This document shows positions 1 to 7,987 of a stretch of 7,987 nt of DNA, in pieces (positions within the stretch are counted from its first letter, which is position 1; every line of letters begins with the position of its first letter). Source of the stretch: Octopus sinensis. Taxonomy: Eukaryota. The position numbers and the translations under genes were made by a program. Where the stretch lies: positions 1-7,987 of the forward strand of contig NW_021828588.1 of assembly GCF_006345805.1 (NCBI RefSeq). The letters are read 5' to 3'. The notes below the pieces were generated by a model that was not told where the DNA came from, did no database searches, and worked only from the letters and a program-made list of their open reading frames with translations.

Positions 1-473
1 ACACTCCCCAAATGGGCTAACACTCCCCAAATGGGGTAACACTCCCAAAATGGGATAACACTCCCCAAAAGGGCTAACACTCCGAAAATGGGCTAACACT
101 CCCCTAAGAGGTTAACACTCCCAAAATGGGTTAACTCTCCCCAAAAGGGTTAACACTCCGAAAATGGGCTAGCGCTCCCAAAATGGGTTAACACTCCCCA
201 AAATGGGTTAACACTCCGAAAATGGGCTAGCACTCCCAAAATGGGTTAACACTCCCCAAAAGGGTTGACACTCCCAAAAAGGGTTAACACTCCCCAAATG
301 GACTAACACTCCGAAAGTAGGCTAACACTCCCCAAAGGGGCTCCCAAATTGGGTTAACACTCCCCAAAAGGGTTAACACTCCAAAAATCGGCTAACACTC
401 CCCGAAGGGGTTAACACTCTCATAATGGGCTAACACTCCCAAAATGGGTAAACACTTCGAAAATGGGTTAACA
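1..473. repeat. 19-bp minisatellite, about 25 units (consensus ACACTCCC(C/A)AAATGGG(T/C)TA), continuing beyond the left window edge
   Basis: Units read directly at 1, 20, 39, 58, 77, 96, 115, 134, 153, 172, 191 (20 bp), 211, 230, 249, 268, 287, 306, 325/341 (two shortened units), 357, 376, 395, 414, 433 and 452. There are no unique spacers. Confidence 0.95.
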
Positions 474-869
474 ATTCTCTGCACACATATCTCATTAAGA
501 TTTTCTCAATTGCTCAACCATTTCTGTGATGACTTTAGCCTCTAGCCACTATCCCATCGCTTGTGTTTCACCTCCGATTGCAACGGCTTACTCTCGTATC
601 CTTTATCTCTTCGTTATCTCGCTGCACAATCTCCATATCTAAATGTGCACATTTCGCAGTGATAATGCACAATCACATTCCGTTGATATGCATCGGTAAT
701 TTTACATGTAACAATTAAGATGAATAAACGAGCAAGTAACAGCTGCAATATTAAGAAAGTCTGTCTGTGTGTCTGACTACCTGTGCACTTTTGGGTGTAT
801 ATAGACACTTCTGTCTATATATAGATGTATAAGGATGTGTGTATTTCACTATATCTCACTCAGGGTGTA

Positions 870-1432
870 TACTCTTTTACTCTTTCACTTGTTTCAGTCA
901 TTTGACTGCGGCCATGCTGGAGCACCGCCTTTAATCGAGCAACTCGACCCCGGGACTTATTCTTTTGTAAGCCCAGTACTTATTCTATCAGTCTTTTTGC
1001 CAAACGCTAAGTGACGGGGAACATAACACACCAGCATCGGTTGTCGAGCAATGCTAGTGGGACAAACACAGACACACAAACACACACACGCATATATATA
1101 TATATATACATATATATATATGACTTGTTTCAGTCATTTGACTGCGGCCATGCTGGAGCACCGCCTTAATCGAGCAACTCGGGGGACAAACACACACACG
1201 CATATATATATACGTATATATGTACGTCTCTGTGTGTATATATATATATATATATAATATATATATATATACACGACGGGCTTCTTTCAGTTTCCGTCTA
1301 CCAAATCCACTCACAAGACTTTGGTCGGCCCGAGGCTATAGTAGAAGTCACTTGCCCAAGGTTCCACGCAGTGGGACTGAACCCGGAGCCATGTGGTTGG
1401 TTAGCAAGCTACTTACCACACACCCACTCCTG
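870..1432 (-). mobile_element. tRNA-derived SINE, family A, copy 1 (full length, with internal partial duplication)
   Basis: Near-identical to 4564-4795 and 6347-6752. On the minus strand it reads: tRNA-like head with B-box-like GGTTCAGTCCC, CORE-like ACCTTGGGCAAGT, internal TG/TA microsatellite, and a 3' tail of (AAAAGAGT)n. Confidence 0.9.
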
Positions 1433-1690
1433 TGTATATGCATCTATATCCATATATGTGGGTGTATGTGTGAGTTTGTACATCTCTGTGTGTATATATA
1501 CATTTATATGTGTCTATATGCTTGCATGTATGTATGTGTTTGACTGTACATCTCGAGGGGTATATATGTATTTGTATCCGTATATCTGAATGGATGTGTG
1601 TAGGTATTTGACTGTATATCTCTTAGTGTGTGTATAACATTTATATCTGTATATGTGTATGGCTGTATGCATGTTTGTGTGTCTGTGGGT
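1433..1690. repeat. Degenerate TG/TA low-complexity tract
   Basis: Interrupted tgta/tatg/tgtg motifs throughout. Confidence 0.75.
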
Positions 1691-1731
1691 GTAACAACAG
1701 ACTGACATGACGGAAATAAAAAGCAAAAAAA

Positions 1732-2146
1732 GTGTGTGTGTGTGTATGTTTTTGTGTGTGTGTATGTGTGTTTTTGTGTGTGGTTGTGTGTGTGTGTGTA
1801 TGTGCGTGCGTGCGTATGTGTGTGTGTTTGTGTGTGTGTGTGTTTTTGTCTATGTGTGTGCGCATACGTGCGTGTGTGTGCGTACGTGCGTGTGTGTGAG
1901 TGCGTGTGTGTGTGAGTGCGTGCGTATGTGTGTGTGTTTGTGTGTGTGTGTGTGTTTTTGTCTATGTGTGTGCGCATACGTGCGTGTGTGTGCGTACGTG
2001 CGTATGTGTGAGTGCGTGTGTGTGTGTGTTTGTGGTGTGTGTGTGTGTGTGTGTTTTTGTGTGTGTGTTGTGTGTGTTGTGTGTGTGTGTTGTGTGTGGC
2101 GCGCATACGTGCGTGTGTGCGTGTGCGTACGTGCGTATGTGTGTGT

Positions 2147-2184
<38 letters not shown>

Positions 2185-2283
2185 CGTGTGTGTGTTTGTG
2201 TGCGTGTGTTCCTATCTGTATGTGTTAATATCTGTGTTTGTGTGAGTGAACGCGCGCGCGCGTATTTGCGTGGGTGTGTGTGT
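1732..2283. repeat. Compound (TG)n microsatellite with TGCG/TACG interruptions and internal block duplications
   Basis: Alternating purine-pyrimidine tract. The cassette cgcatacgtgcgtgtgtg recurs at 1861, 1973 and 2102. Confidence 0.95.
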
Positions 2284-2504
2284 GGACACGCCCATGCCTG
2301 TCCGTTCATGTTTCAAGCAAGGTTGGTCTGCCATTTCAGGAAGTAAATTAGAAATATTTGGCGCCAAACAAACCGGCGCTCTTTCACAGCATTAGGTTGC
2401 ACCGAGTCTTTTAATCGACGTCTAACACAACCCTGTCAAGATATTCATCAACGTGAATTGCATATCTACACCAGGTATTGAGTTCTTTTCATTTTGTCCC
2501 TACT

Positions 2505-2752
2505 TAGACATCTGTGCATAATTTTTTATAATATAAATGTAAACAGATGTGACTGTGTGTGTACCGTTGGCGATTTTCTTCCCTCTGTTTTCCCTTCTCT
2601 GGATCTTTCCTTCTCCTATGTTTCCGATGAAGGGCTCCGCTCGAAACGTTAAACCCTTCTTCTTCCCTTCTTTCCTGAGCGTCCAATAATTCTATATTTG
2701 TACCACGTCCTCGCGTTGTTGTGTTTTTTTGTGCTGTCTTTTTGGATTAACT
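2505..2752 (+). mobile_element. Probable Penelope-like (pLTR-type) repeat fragment carrying a hammerhead motif; boundaries approximate
   Basis: Contains a minimal hammerhead motif (2620-2654) in a pyrimidine-rich context and ends at ggattaac directly against a (TA)n array. Minimal hammerheads are established features of Penelope-like element terminal repeats. The family assignment is inference. Confidence 0.5.
2620..2654 (+). ncRNA. Minimal type I hammerhead ribozyme motif (U4C core variant)
   Basis: GTTT-CCGATGA-A-GGGC-tcc-GCTC-GAAA-CG-TT-AAAC. Stem I is GTTT/AAAC, stem II is GGGC/GCTC (one G-U), and palindromic ACGT replaces stem III. The triplet is GUU with predicted cleavage at 2650/2651. 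Confidence 0.7.
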
Positions 2753-2772
2753 TATATATGTGTATATATATA

Positions 2773-2803
<31 letters not shown>

Positions 2804-2818
2804 CATACATATATATTA

Positions 2819-2850
<32 letters not shown>

Positions 2851-2912
2851 CGTATGTATATATATATGTATATATAATATATATGTATATATATATGTAT
2901 ATATTATATATG

Positions 2913-2943
<31 letters not shown>

Positions 2944-3026
2944 GTATATATATTATATATGTATATATATATATAGATATATATATATTATATATGTATA
3001 TATAATAGATATATGTATATATATAG

Positions 3027-3070
<44 letters not shown>

Positions 3071-3093
3071 TAATATATATACATATAATATAC

Positions 3094-3129
<36 letters not shown>

Positions 3130-3131
3130 AC

Positions 3132-3196
<65 letters not shown>

Positions 3197-3286
3197 CATA
3201 CGTACATACATACATACTACATATACATATGCGTACATACGTACATACATACATACATACATACATACATACATACATACATACAT
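2753..3286. repeat. Long (TA)n array with (TATG)n and (TACA)n segments
   Basis: Directly visible. It accounts for all the Y/I/M-rich ORFs in this interval. Confidence 0.97.
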
Positions 3287-3341
3287 GCTGCTTTCATTCA
3301 TAAACAAATAGGCATATGCGCACATGTTTGTATACACAGAA

Positions 3342-3412
3342 ACACACACACACACACAGAGTCATAGATTAATGTGTGTGTGTGTGTGTGTATTTGTATG
3401 TGTGCATATGTG
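3342..3412. repeat. (CA)n and (TG)n microsatellites
   Basis: (CA)n at about 3342-3358 and (TG)n at about 3373-3391, followed by degenerate TG. Confidence 0.85.
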
Positions 3413-3420
3413 TGGAAAGA

Positions 3421-3567
3421 TACATTATTTACATTTGACGGAAATTTGTCCTCATCTTGTTTGTTGTTAACACAACGTTTCGGCTAATATACCCTCCAGC
3501 CTTTATCAGGTGTCTTGGGGAAATTTCGAACTTGGGTTCTCATTTCTATGGTATTTTTCGATGTTTA

Positions 3568-3601
<34 letters not shown>

Positions 3602-3674
3602 TACTCAGGTCACTGCCTAGAATCGATCTCGGAATCTTGGGGTTAGTAGCCCGCGCTCTTAACCACTATGCCCG
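3421..3674 (-). mobile_element. Left arm of palindrome: tRNA-headed, hammerhead-bearing SINE-like element
   Basis: Reverse complement of 3675-3946, about 90% identical outside the microsatellite by manual alignment. It lacks 7 nt (TGGCGTA) near the A box, has a degraded B box (GAGATCGATTCT), and has an (ATT)n tract at about 3566-3604. Confidence 0.85.
3469..3514 (-). ncRNA. Minimal type I hammerhead motif (G8A lesion)
   Basis: The minus strand reads GACAC-CTGATAA-A-GGCTG-gagggtatat-TAGCC-GAAA-CG-TT-GTGTT, with stem I GACAC/GTGTT and stem II GGCTG/TAGCC. Confidence 0.65.
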
Positions 3675-3682
3675 CGGGCATA

Positions 3683-3737
3683 TGGCGTAGTGGTTAAGAG
3701 CGCGGGTTACTAACCCCAAGATTCCGAGTTCGATTCC
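3683..3737 (+). promoter_or_regulatory. Type 2 RNA polymerase III internal promoter (A box and B box)
   Basis: A box TGGCGTAGTGG (3683-3693) fits TRGCNNAGYGG. B box GAGTTCGATTCC (3726-3737) fits GTTCRANNC. Spacing is tRNA-like. The first downstream T4 run is at 4055-4058. Confidence 0.75.
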
Positions 3738-3852
3738 TAGCAGTGACCTGAACAATAATAATAACAACAACAACAACAACAACAATAATAATAATAATAA
3801 TAACATCGAAAAATATCTTGGGAATGAGAACTCAGGTTCGAAATTTCCCCAA

Positions 3853-3898
3853 GACACCGCATGAAGGCTGGAGGGTATATCAGCCGAAACATTGTGTT
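3853..3898 (+). ncRNA. Minimal type I hammerhead motif (degenerate core)
   Basis: GACAC-CGCATGA-A-GGCTG-gagggtatat-CAGCC-GAAA-CA-TT-GTGTT. Stem II is a perfect 5-bp helix. The core lesions differ from those in the left arm. Confidence 0.55.
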
Positions 3899-4060
3899 AA
3901 CAACAAACAAGATGAGGGGAAATATCCGTCAAATGTAAATAATGTACATAATTCCTCATCTCTTAAATATTTAAGTGTGAAAAGATGCAGAAATAATGAA
4001 ACATGCAAACCGATACATACTCAGATGCGTTATATAACATGGCGTACACGAAACTTTTAG

Positions 4061-4146
4061 CCCTTGAGTCACTTTGTAAGGATTTCCCTGGGTGGTCCAA
4101 CGGCTTGTGAGTAAATTTGGTCGACGAAGACTGTATGGAAGCCCGT
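4061..4146 (+). mobile_element. Old, diverged fragment related to SINE family A
   Basis: ccaacggcttgtgagtaaatttggtcgacgaagactgtatggaagcccgt (4097-4146) aligns to the family A sense sequence ccaaagtcttgtgagtggatttggtagacggaaactgaaagaagcccgt (reverse complement of about 1276-1324). Confidence 0.7.
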
Positions 4147-4231
4147 AACATTATAACTATTTTTCAGATGATGTAGGTGCCAATTATATCGGAATTTCAA
4201 ATGAAAAAAAAATGGTAGGCTTGCAGAACTG

Positions 4232-4360
4232 GCCTTCCGTTGGTTACGACGATAAGGGTTCCAGTTGAGACGATCAACGGGGCAGCCCGCTCCTGAAATT
4301 ATCGTGCAAGTGACTGAGTATTCCACAGACGCGTATACTTTTAACGTAGTTCTTAGGGCC
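4232..4360 (+). mobile_element. Probable diverged SINE body fragment
   Basis: GC-richer island (gggttccagttga...gatcaacgg...gtgcaagtgactgagtattccacagac...ttaacgtagttct) resembling an interspersed octopus repeat recalled from memory. There is no second copy in the window to confirm it. Confidence 0.4.
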
Positions 4361-4563
4361 CGCACTCATACATGCTGACACAGGTCACATATATACTCAC
4401 AAAATGAAAGTTGAAATTTTGGGAAAAGAAAATGGGTCATATGTATTAGTATGTATGTCTGCACACCGGTCAATCTTCTTTTCCCGGCATAATCGTGATC
4501 TACACAACCTGAACGGTATTTGTAGAGGATTTCATAATTAGATACTCATTTTTCTGAAAGTTA

Positions 4564-4795
4564 TACTCTTTACTCTTTTACTCTTTTACTTGTTTCAGTC
4601 ATTTGACTGCGGCCATGCTGGAGCACCGCCTTTAGTCGAGCAAATCGACCCCGGGACTTATTCTTTGTAAGCCCAGTACTTATTCTATCGGTTGCTTTTG
4701 CCGAACCGCTAAGTAACGGGGACGTAAACACACCAGCATCGGTTGTTAAGCAATGCTAGGGGGACAAACACAGACACACAAACATATACACACAC
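4564..4795 (-). mobile_element. SINE family A, copy 2 (3' half only; tRNA head missing)
   Basis: Matches 6347-6578 from the (ACTCTTTT)n tail to the internal CA/TA microsatellite, then stops. Confidence 0.9.
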
Positions 4796-4805
4796 TAGGC
4801 TTACA

Positions 4806-4873
4806 AAGTACTAGGCTTACAAAGAATAAGCCCTGGGATCGATTTGCTCGACTAAAGGCGGTGCTCCAGCATG
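4806..4873 (+). mobile_element. Inverted 68-bp fragment of SINE family A
   Basis: Reverse complement of 4614-4681 with 64/68 identity. Confidence 0.9.
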
Positions 4874-4886
4874 TGCGTGTGCGTAT

Positions 4887-4934
4887 ACACACACACACAC
4901 ACACACACACACGCACGCACACACATATACACAC
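4887..4934. repeat. (CA)n microsatellite
   Basis: Directly visible. Confidence 0.9.
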
Positions 4935-5400
4935 GTATGTTGTACTTATTGTCGACGATTGCTTCCAAGACATGTGCGTCTCAACTGGAAAAGCGACATA
5001 GCAAGGAGAAACATTCCGAAATATAACAATATCTGTTTCAACACACGACTTCACATAAAAAATCTTGCACAACAAATATACAAACGTACATTAAAAAAAA
5101 AATTATTTGTTAATATCTAATTTAATAAATGATTTCTACATATTGTCACATACATTTTGATTGATTTTTCACTTCAGTATCGCTTTGTAAATGTTCTGTT
5201 TTTTAAAATTTTTTTTAACAATTTTCTGATACTAAAATATGCTAGCAGAGACCCTTGTTAGTCGAGTGAATTGGCTAAATTTTGTAGTTTGTTCTCTTCA
5301 TTTATTAAAACAGGTAGAGATTGAATAGGTAGGTATAACATCTAATATTTTCCCGTTTTTTAAAGTGAAACGTATCTGCTTGAATATATTTGGCGGTTTA

Positions 5401-5826
5401 AGGCGGCGAGCTGGCAGACACGTTAGCGCGCCGGGCGGAATGCTTAGCGGTATTTCGTCTGTCGTTACGTTCTGAGTTCAAATTCCGCCGAGGTCGACTT
5501 TGCCTTTCATCCTTTCGGGGTCAATAAATAAAAGTACCAGTTTCGCACTGGGGTCGATGTAATCGACTTAATACCTATGTCTGTTCTTGTTTGTCCCCTC
5601 TGTGTTTAGCCCCTTGTGGGTAATAAAGAAATAGAAAGAAATAGATATTTCGTCTGTCGTTACGTTCTGAGTTCAAATTCCGCCGAGGTCGACTTTGCCT
5701 TTCATCCTTTCGGGGTCGATAAATAAAAGTACCAGTTTCGCACTGGGGTCGATGTAATCGACTTAATCCCTTTGTATGTCCTTGGTTGTCCTCTCTGTGT
5801 TTAGCCCTTGTGGGCAATAAAGAAAT
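5401..5826 (+). mobile_element. tRNA-derived SINE family B: full unit (5401-5634) plus 5'-truncated tandem unit (5646-5826), inside one 12-bp TSD
   Basis: Head GGCGGCGAGCTGGCAGA and B box GAGTTCAAATTCC (5474-5486). Central GTCGACTTTGCCTTTCATCCTTTCGGGGTC domain and tail AAAGAAATA. Direct repeat ATATATTTGGCG at 5384-5395 and 5827-5838. Homologous to 7452-7681. Confidence 0.9.
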
Positions 5827-5840
5827 ATATATTTGGCGCT

Positions 5841-5985
5841 TTATTTATTTATTTATTTATTTAAAGGAGTGGAAGGTAGATAGATAGATAGATAGATAGA
5901 TAGGTAGGTAGGTAGATAGATAGGTAGGTAGGTAGGTAGGTAGATAGATAGATAGACAGATAAGCAGATGAATAGACAGACAGAT
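5841..5985. repeat. (TTTA)n followed by (TAGA)n/(TAGG)n/(CAGA)n tetranucleotide microsatellites
   Basis: (TTTA)n at about 5841-5863 and the TAGA/TAGG array at about 5876-5985. Confidence 0.9.
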
Positions 5986-6256
5986 GTGAGTGAGGGCATA
6001 TCAACAAACCTCTTCTATATTGAAAACACTGCACCTGTTTTTTTAACGGATTTATACAATTAATCCACCCCTTTCTTTAGAAAAGAATATACCCGCTTAA
6101 CCATACTTGTGTATTTATTTTATCTTATTTATTTATCGTTTTTTTTTTTGACAGTATCAGTTACTGGACAGCGGCCATGCTGTAGCCTGCTTTCATAGAT
6201 TTTCTCCCATTTCATTTCTTTACGTTGAGGAAACGTCTCTTAGGCCTGTAAAATTG

Positions 6257-6897
6257 GGCCTATATTTCATACCTGATTTGGGCCTATTGCCTATTAAAAT
6301 AGGCCTATATTTTATACCTGGTCTTGAACTATTGCCTATTGAAATAACTCTTTTACTCTTTTTACTCTTTTACTTGTTTCAGTCATTTGACTGCGGCCAT
6401 GCTGGAGCACCGCCTTTAGTCGAGCAACTCGACCCCGGGACTTATTCTTTGTAAGCCCAGTACTTATTCTATCGGTCTCTTTTTGCCGAACCGCTAAGTG
6501 ACGGGGACGTAAACACACCAGCATCGGTTGTCAAGCAATGCTAGGGGGACAAACACAGACACACAAACATACACACATATATATACATATACATATATAC
6601 GACAGGCTTCTTTCAGTTTCCGTCTACCAAATCCACTCACAAGGCATTGGTCGGCCCGGGGCTATAGCAGAAGACACTTGCCCAAGGTGCCACGCAGTGG
6701 GACTGAACCCAGAACCATGTGGTTGGTTAGCAAGTTACTTACCACACAGCCATACATGATCTGGGCCTATTGCCTATTAAAATAGGGCTATATTTTATAC
6801 CTGGTCTTGAACTATTGCCTATTAAAATAGGCCTTTTTACCAAAGAAAATGAGGTCTATATTTCACATCTAGCCTAGATCCATTGCCTCTTGAAACA
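6257..6897. repeat. 45-bp minisatellite interrupted by a SINE
   Basis: Units at 6257-6301, 6302-6346, 6751-6784 (partial), 6785-6829 and 6853-6897 (degenerate). Consensus is approximately GGCCTATATTTYATACCTGRTYTKGRMCTATTGCCTATTAAAATA. Confidence 0.85.
6347..6752 (-). mobile_element. SINE family A, copy 3 (near full length)
   Basis: Minus strand: A-box-like TGGCTGTGTGG (6752-6742), B-box-like GGTTCAGTCCC (6709-6699), CORE-like ACCTTGGGCAAGT (6688-6676), internal microsatellite, and three AAAAGAGT tail units. Confidence 0.92.
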
Positions 6898-6991
6898 TGG
6901 CCCCTTTTCACTCTGCTTAAGACACTCATGGATTAGGTGGACATGTTAAATTGGACGGATTCTACGTTTTTAATTCAATTAAGGATCAGGT

Positions 6992-7220
6992 AGAGGTCTT
7001 GAGAAAGAGGGCTTTGCTGGCTATTTGAAACATCAGCGTCTGAAAAGATTCTGAAAGTCTAGATATGGTAGCAGCAGGATTTGACTGGCCTGCGGTGGTC
7101 ACCCGATTCTGCCCACTGATGTGTCTCAACAGAACGAAATCACGTGATGTGGGGATTCTGGTACCCATGACAGAGAAATTCCGTCTGCTATTATCTATGT
7201 GTGTGCATTTATGCTCGGGC
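6992..7220 (+). pseudogene. Possible decayed L1/Tx1-like ORF2 endonuclease remnant
   Basis: Peptide fragments occur in the expected order across frames: RGL..., LDMVA, KSRDVGILV (compare KSRGVAILI-type motifs of L1-clade APE endonucleases) and FRLL...IYA. It is frameshifted and too short between motifs, so the call is weak. Confidence 0.3.
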
Positions 7221-7353
7221 GATTATGAGAGAGGATCTCCCAAGGGCCAATTACGCAGCATTCGGTGTTCTTTCAAGGCATCCATGTTAAGTTGGATATG
7301 AAGATTAACTTTTGGTATTAACACTGCTACTTCCGGCCCTAATAATTGATACT

Positions 7354-7804
7354 AATTTCAGATTTTTGACACAAGGCCAGCAATTTTGGGTGAGGGTTAG
7401 GATTAGACGATTACATCGAACCCATTACTCGGCTGGTACTTATTTTATTAAAGGCAGCGAGCTGGCAGAAACGTTAGCATGCCGGGCGAAATGCGTAGCC
7501 GTATTTCGTCTGCTTATGTTCTGAGTTCAAATTCCGCCGAGGTCGACTTTGCCCTTCATCCTTTCGGGGTCGATTAAATAAGTACCAGTTGCGCACTGGA
7601 GTCGATATAATCGACTTAATCCGTTTGTCTGTCCTTGTTTCTCCTCTCTGTGTTTAGCCCCTTGTGGGCAGAAAAGAAATAGGTACTTATTTTATCAACC
7701 CCAAAAGGATAAAAGGCAAAGTCGACCACGGTGCAATCTGAACTCAGAACGTGAATTACGGACGAAATGCTATAAAGCATTTTGCCCGGCATGCTAACGA
7801 TTCT
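7354..7804 (-). mobile_element. Older, diverged family B-related SINE split by a nested younger copy (pieces at about 7354-7448 and 7696-7804)
   Basis: Removing 7449-7695 restores ...gattacatcgaaccc...ctggtacttattttat|caaccccaaaaggataaaaggcaaagtcgacc...gaactcagaacgt...gcccggcatgctaacg, which is collinear with the reverse complement of family B. Confidence 0.85.
7452..7681 (+). mobile_element. SINE family B, full-length younger copy with 14-bp TSD
   Basis: Homologous to 5401-5634 and flanked by GGTACTTATTTTAT at 7435-7448 and 7682-7695. Confidence 0.93.
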
Positions 7805-7816
7805 TTTCTGTTATGG

Positions 7817-7987
7817 GCATAAGGACTGAAGTTTTGGAGGAAGGGGCCAGTCGATTGCATTGAGCCCGGTGTTTCACTGGTACTTATTTAATCGACCCCG
7901 AAAGGATGAAAGGCAAAGTCGACCTCGGCGGAATTTGAACTCAGAACGTAACGGCAGACGAAATACGGCTACGCATTTCGCCCAGCC
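7817..7987 (-). mobile_element. SINE family B-related copy, reaching the right window edge
   Basis: 7876-7983 is the reverse complement of 7484-7589 with two substitutions and a 2-nt indel. 7817-7875 resembles the 3' end type of the older copy at about 7368-7434. Confidence 0.9.

Follow-up and report, generated by a model that had tools for sequence, protein, structure and literature searches.

The window analysed here is a 7,987-nucleotide stretch of Octopus sinensis DNA (contig NW_021828588.1, positions 1 to 7,987). It carries a putative hammerhead motif inside a dispersed repeat, and a second family with similar motifs lies further along. The features that matter for what follows are these:

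2541 to 2752, + strand: dispersed, very high-copy, non-coding repeat of ~210 nt that carries the hammerhead motif, delimited by run depth and loose ends
2620 to 2623, + strand: stem I 5' arm as read from the sequence, pairing with 2651-2654; pairing in trans is predicted in a dimer
2624 to 2630, + strand: core box C3-A9 (C3 at 2624, C4 at 2625, G5-A9 at 2626-2630), with U at position 7 (2628)
2631, + strand: extra A between A9 and G10.1, a published feature of minimal hammerheads of Penelope-like elements (PLEs; PMC4209133)
2632 to 2642, + strand: stem II, 2632-2635 with 2639-2642, 4 bp (G-C, G.U, G-C, C-G) and a 3-nt loop
2643 to 2650, + strand: G12-A14 (2643-2645), palindrome A15.1-C-G-U16.1 (2646-2649) and U17 (2650), with cleavage predicted after 2650
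2651 to 2654, + strand: stem I 3' arm, 4 bp with the 5' arm, three of them A-U
2753 to 3290, no strand: (TA)n-type microsatellite directly 3' of the repeat, recognized by its sequence and by AT-rich loose ends
3469 to 3514, - strand: minimal hammerhead of a second family, in the left arm of the 3421-3946 inverted repeat (G8A; 30.8 bits)
3853 to 3898, + strand: damaged minimal hammerhead of the second family, in the right arm (core positions 3-4 and palindrome altered; 14.4 bits)

The 35 letters that a sequence-only reading had quoted for the motif are present at 2620-2654 exactly as it gave them. The layout of this segment is that of a minimal type I hammerhead of the Penelope type, in which the self-complementary 2646-2649 takes the place of helix III. 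Compared with the strict hammerhead consensus of PMC3088659, C3, G5, A6, G8, A9, G12, A13, A14, A15.1, U16.1 and H17 are all present, with no variant above 6% across the four sequencing runs described below, and the pairs U2623-A2651 and G2632-C2642 are formed; U4 of that consensus is replaced by C at 2625. Neither the stem I 5' arm (2620-2623) nor 2643-2650 has a listed variant at or above 4% in any of the four runs, and a C-to-T variant at 2654 (7-11% of family depth) keeps stem I paired as a G.U.

A minimal-hammerhead descriptor that allowed one core mismatch found two sites in the window (+2624 and -3509). In 400 dinucleotide shuffles of the window, used as a control, the mean was 0.0075 sites; one site occurred in 3/400 shuffles and two sites in 0/400. 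An Rfam scan of the window gave no hammerhead match at 2620-2654 at E<=10, and the folding free-energy z-score of the motif, -0.63, was not significant. The Rfam miRNA matches in the window are microsatellite artefacts.

We estimated the abundance of the host repeat from the contigs of 4 of 24 listed sequencing runs (three organism labels), which were placed on 2290-2752 (2,991-13,855 contigs per run); runs with a small share do not enter the evidence. Depth summed over 2610-2657 was 0.9-4 million, while that of the unique flank was 47.6, 23.8 and 2.9, and 0 in run X8. The repeat/flank ratio was ~7x10^4 in run X1 and ~1.7x10^5 in X2; as summed depth is not a copy number, we take the abundance as an order of magnitude only. 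The copies of the repeat likely number in the tens of thousands at least. The idea that this second repeat might prove single-copy is thus refuted by a depth ~10^5 times that of the flank, and the repeat is real. At 2407-2408, within the unique flank, two neighbouring bases in run X1 depart from the window sequence, which X2 matches.

The repeat had been thought to extend over 2505-2752. Its 3' end at 2752 stands, but over 2498-2529 depth equals or nearly equals that of the flank, which puts the true start at ~2541/2547. This 5' edge is uncertain by ~6 nt; in each of the four runs, loose ends of heterogeneous AT-rich letters (agreement 0.47-0.56) accumulate before 2547. Loose ends also pile up behind 2727-2740, and behind 2740 they are AT-rich in all four runs. 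At 2752 the repeat abuts the (TA)n tract, which is likely its insertion target; a microsatellite insertion bias is described for PLE clades (PMC8557442). The repeat is solo in the window. Head-to-tail joints were found in 2 contigs among thousands (2735 to 2557; 2729 to 2558) and no strand-changing joints were listed among the placed contigs; tandem joints are rare, though short contigs may hide some.

Known classes of repeat were considered as identities for the unit. A tRNA-derived SINE was rejected, as no pol III A and B boxes matched on either strand within 2541-2752 and ARAGORN found no tRNA. An autonomous PLE was rejected because there is no RT plus GIY-YIG ORF beside the unit within the window: tblastn of the window with six PLE-like queries (E<=1e-4) gave no RT/EN homology, and the window's ORF list held nothing PLE-like by eye. 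A tandem non-LTR retrozyme was rejected since the copy is solo and tandem joints are rare. An exact 21-nt stretch of the family had 0 matches in metagenome, prokaryote-genome and viral contigs, and blastn of the family against phages returned no match.

Across the family, U at position 4 (2625) accounts for just 22.1, 21.9, 14.9 and 18.4% of depth in the four runs, and the majority state is C. The sequence-only reading had noted that this copy has U4C and may be impaired; with C4 in the majority, U4C is not decay of the window copy. At position 7 (2628), C makes up 90-98% of family depth and the window copy has U. At 2633, A makes up 98-99.7%, so that the window copy's G.U 2633/2641 is otherwise a Watson-Crick A-U and stem II of the family is fully Watson-Crick. 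Changes in the family's stems are either G.U-compatible (2633, 2654) or of CpG type at 2-6% (2638, 2639); no two-sided compensatory stem change was seen within the family.

The U4 minority is not just CpG decay, because G2626A, the CpG partner change of position 4, reaches 1-4%, whereas the control CpG 2638/2639 changes symmetrically (5.5% and 5.8% in X1, for example). We infer a U4 subfamily of ~13-19% beside the C4 majority; the two forms coexist at ~1:4 to 1:6. C4 and C7 occur together in at least ~60-82% of depth, a lower bound obtained by arithmetic. The U4 share was 18.4% in X8 versus 21.9% in X2, which bears the same organism label; that X8 is an RNA run is a guess.

The features of the motif had been taken for an unusual, lineage-specific variant. 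They are, however, those of the metazoan PLE minimal hammerhead consensus of PMC4209133, namely a conserved nucleotide between 9 and 10.1, a G10.1-C11.1 pair and a palindromic 15.2-16.2; the window motif matches them with A2631 as the extra base, G2632-C2642 and a palindrome without helix III. According to the same source (Cervera & de la Pena 2014), a single PLE motif of this type gave no cleavage and dimers had low activity.

The same signature is found with other stems in metagenomes. Scanning metagenome contigs, with C or U allowed at positions 4 and 7, yielded at least 121 loci, 41 of which had only 300-nt flanks. Stem II and stem I, each of at least 3 bp, were both formed in 40 of the 121 metagenome matches listed, compared with 0/33 matches in viral contigs, a chance control whose pattern was narrower (U4/U7 only). 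Pfam placed RVT_1 in locus L058 and GIY-YIG in L108 and L069; overall, 25 ORFs of at least 150 aa from 40 chosen loci comprised 3 with RT or GIY-YIG, 5 with host or other families and 17 with none. Six PLE-like protein pieces from metagenome loci served as tblastn queries (E<=1e-4), and all 25 resulting rows, self-matches included, lay on the motif's strand. RT/GIY-YIG-like coding sequence ends 25-195 nt upstream of the motif in at least 10 metagenome loci. The paired stems together with this coding context indicate that the signature is PLE-associated and widespread, not lineage-specific.

A covariance model built from 37 metagenome motifs ranked 2619-2655 first in the window (35 bits), followed by 3469-3514 (30.8 bits) and 3853-3898 (14.4 bits); this ranking is partly circular, as the scan pattern derived from the signature itself. 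Together with depth, it supports the earlier proposal of a Penelope-type minimal hammerhead in a second multi-copy family; between this family and the 3421-3946 element the stems are unrelated.

Nine animal-derived metagenome contigs have a stem II region like that of the target (L039, L052, L071, L096, L135, L144, L050, L070 and L121), and the motifs of L052, L135 and L144 resemble the target near stem II at 87-92% over 24-30 nt. Five of the nine (L039, L070, L096, L121 and L144; L052 unchecked) have an inverted partial copy at most 400 nt upstream. Several of the nine read C4/C7.

Positions 4 and 7 among the 40 well-paired metagenome motifs listed are UU in 30, UC in 6, CC in 3 and CU in 1. 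C7 thus occurs with C4 in 3/4 and with U4 in 6/36 (Fisher p 0.03), a weak result, as n is 4 and the test ignores relatedness; L050 and L070 share an assembly and seem to be relatives. A relaxed rescan for these two positions gave 1 further motif. Alignment A2 was set aside for counting covariation, as pairing had been the criterion for choosing its rows. In the full-length hammerhead structure, U4 and U7 are in contact. Our literature search found nothing that supports 4-7 covariation or could be used on this contact. Variants of PLE hammerheads are reportedly treated by Lunse et al. (RNA Biol 14:1499), who may already list C4 variants. The literature searched, which leaves aside that paper and one supplement of PMC4209133, contained no description of a C4-majority PLE family. 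Among publications on hammerhead ribozymes and octopus, none describes the repeat as far as title and start of abstract go, and the main text of a 2026 octopus repeat annotation mentions neither ribozyme nor hammerhead.

Folding of the window copy does not favour the active form. The hammerhead fold of the monomer has -2.9 kcal/mol versus a minimum of -5.1 kcal/mol, that of the dimer -3.9 versus -19.9 kcal/mol, and in the 212-nt context the predicted probability of the hammerhead stem pairs is ~0. Part of this distance from the minimum arises because the core's own GAAAC is complementary to the 5' arm and C3. Indeed, 2620-2624 is complementary to 2643-2647 (G12-C15.2), and the inactive hairpin predicted from this pairing is more stable than the hammerhead fold. 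Both segments are without listed variants in the family. In such models, the hairpin could act as an off-switch.

We think it probable that the locus holds a Penelope-like minimal hammerhead in a ~210-nt repeat that is likely a non-autonomous derivative spread by a PLE RT/GIY-YIG protein, and in which C4 likely leaves a weak or vestigial ribozyme. The repeat unit would be transcribed on the + strand. Without stem III, a monomer could not be expected to form an active core; two RNAs of the same family would pair via the ACGU palindrome, swap stem I arms into a double hammerhead and cut after U2650. Cutting would be slow, or dependent on a bound protein, given U4C, a stem I of 4 bp rich in A-U, and alternative folds of higher stability. 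A PLE protein acting in trans would nick AT-rich or (TA)n DNA and reverse-transcribe the repeat RNA. Since ribozyme cleavage was unneeded for insertion in one PLE tested in vitro, a repeat with a weakened core could still amplify.

That PLE is the one from Anolis, whose hammerhead is reported to cleave only with protein and to be dispensable for insertion in vitro (PMC11167929). In a further source, the function of PLE hammerheads is called unclear, with the remark that hammerheads may parasitise PLEs (PMC8557442). Weak or protein-dependent cleavage by the repeat RNA, modelled as above, is most likely and would fit both the Anolis PLE and this remark. The most likely way of spread is that a PLE protein moves the repeat in trans into AT-rich sites, in keeping with the proposal that animal retrozymes derive from pLTRs (10.64898/2026.07.22.740005). 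As no autonomous partner or ORF junction was found in the window or in the metagenome, prokaryote and viral contigs, the case for a PLE origin rests on the motif type, the microsatellite flank and the rare tandem joints.

Other readings of the locus have to be weighed against this one. A chance resemblance inside an ordinary SINE-like repeat would account for the lack of an Rfam hammerhead match, the folding z-score of -0.63 and the deviation at U4. It is already largely refuted, and we hold it to be very improbable, given the shuffle rate of 3/400, the agreement with every other published feature of PLE minimal hammerheads (PMC4209133), a stem II that is more perfect in the family than in the window copy, and the near-identical matches (87-92% over 24-30 nt) to well-formed motifs in L052, L135 and L144. 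More deserving of attention, though still unlikely, is that the window holds the 3' remnant (a solo pLTR) of an autonomous PLE with extreme 5' truncation, and not a member of a defined non-autonomous family. Most PLE insertions are described as 5'-truncated, keeping one terminal repeat (10.64898/2026.07.22.740005; PMC8557442), and in other animals the motif lies 25-195 nt behind the end of an ORF (at least 10 loci); here, ~80 nt precede the core. Depth also climbs over 2546-2610, not in one step; this gradual rise, however, may stem from the window copy's differences at 2578-2589. Furthermore, the loose ends gather at a single point, before 2547, and are heterogeneous and AT-rich with no shared upstream ORF sequence, and tblastn of the window found no GIY-YIG-like coding remnant upstream.

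Slightly less probable again is that C4 with C7 forms a fully functional core variant that replaces the U4-U7 contact, so that homodimers self-cleave and process or circularise the RNA as a retrozyme does. The joint occurrence of C4 and C7 in at least ~60-82% of family depth speaks for this, as do the association of C7 with C4 among the listed motifs (3/4 vs 6/36, p 0.03), the existence of rare head-to-tail copies, and the scarcity of other change, the remaining core positions and stems having no variant at or above 4% save CpG-type and one G.U-compatible change. Conservation among inserted copies, however, reflects only the source element, and the Fisher test ignores relatedness (L050 and L070 share one assembly) at n=4. 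U4C is a natural variant of an infectious viroid, yet it is reported to lower activity in vitro considerably (PMC3088659), and competing folds dominate here. Tandem joints occur in only 2 contigs among thousands, the possible RNA run X8 is not enriched for either state (U4 18.4% vs 21.9% in X2), and no literature support was found for 4-7 covariation.

The second family bears on a further proposal. The 3421-3946 element is an inverted pair with arms that are 90% complementary. Its unit on the + strand has an A-box-like match at 3683-3694, a B-box-like match at 3728-3736, then an (AAT/AAC)n tract and then the hammerhead at 3853-3898; singly the box matches are not above chance, and their spacing is tRNA-like. 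The sequence suggests a SINE with a tRNA head and a PLE-type hammerhead tail, in a PLE-like inverted arrangement; ARAGORN called no tRNA in 3421-3946. The signature had been described as common to the palindrome motifs. The shared features are there, but neither motif alone shows the signature whole: both are damaged, and it is seen complete only by combining them.

It had also been suggested that the two families cleave as heterodimers via their shared ACGU palindrome. The same 4-nt palindrome does occur in both, and an intermolecular stem III would be possible. By the geometry inferred for the double hammerhead, however, each core needs the 5' stem I arm and the 3' arm from different RNAs, and cross-family arms give 1 consecutive pair (5' arm of this family with 3' arm of the other) and 0 (the reverse), in contrast to 4 and 5 within families. 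The heterodimer fold has -1.4 versus -16.8 kcal/mol for the misfold, and among the 22 listed arm types with this palindrome, at least 3 bp at both cores are reached in only 6/231 pairs. The suggestion is therefore hardly tenable; on this model, the choice of partner would depend on stem I and not on the palindrome.

Elsewhere in the window, Rfam matches Hammerhead_1 weakly at 7110-7155 (+), with 19.3 bits (gathering 34) and E 0.97. The layout there is that of a classical type I hammerhead whose helix III is short and palindromic and whose A9 is changed, possibly a third, decayed hammerhead family. A satellite with a 19-nt unit is repeated in tandem over 1-470. Several direct and inverted copies represent two other dispersed repeat families, one at 875-1426, 4576-4814 and 6360-6752 and the other at 5400-5830 and 7450-7987.

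Taken as a non-autonomous PLE derivative, the repeat bears on the question of what PLE hammerheads are for. The signature that drew attention to it is already in print and hence ordinary; the C4 majority is the family's one oddity. Because of that majority, most copies in the family would escape descriptors that insist on CUGANGA. We regard it as improbable, but worth stating, that this repeat, as one of the most abundant in its animal group, spread from source elements with a C4/C7 core and that C4/C7 is a working substitute for the U4/U7 contact which arose in several PLE families and is missed by such descriptors, or else that the family amplified after its ribozyme was silenced. In the latter case, nature itself would have tested whether hammerheads help PLEs or merely ride on them. 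A high-copy family in which U4 and C4 forms coexist allows both cores to be compared directly.

Compared with known systems, the motif, by its sequence, matches the PLE minimal hammerhead in all but U4. With the metazoan PLE motifs of PMC4209133 it shares type I, a 4-bp helix I, the extra nucleotide between 9 and 10.1, the G10.1-C11.1 pair, the palindrome and the occurrence mostly as dispersed single motifs. It differs in the C4 majority of its family, in a helix II of 4 bp versus 7-8 bp in Schistosoma families, and in the apparent abundance of the family (~10^5 times flank depth), which is higher than the 2,000-9,000 per genome reported there. Those motifs lie in pLTRs; no PLE-like ORF was found beside the window repeat.

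Animal non-LTR retrozymes (PMC7229834; 10.64898/2026.07.22.740005) are likewise non-coding, measure 200-300 nt and carry a type I hammerhead; they are proposed to lack autonomy and to be moved by PLEs, and a section title gives up to 120,000 of them in axolotl. They form tandem arrays with mostly canonical hammerheads, in contrast to the window repeat, which has a minimal motif and is solo, with tandem joints in 2 contigs. The Poseidon element PAc of Anolis carolinensis (PMC11167929) also has a hammerhead with stems I and II only and AT-rich insertion sites; it is, however, autonomous and its hammerhead cleaves with the help of protein, whereas the window motif is known from sequence alone. 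Finally, the viroid U4C hammerhead cited in PMC3088659 carries the identical change in its core, which nature tolerates. In the viroid, the change is one variant of an RNA replicon, and tertiary contacts are suggested to offset it; in the window family, a genomic repeat, it is the prevailing state, and loop-loop contacts are not evident.
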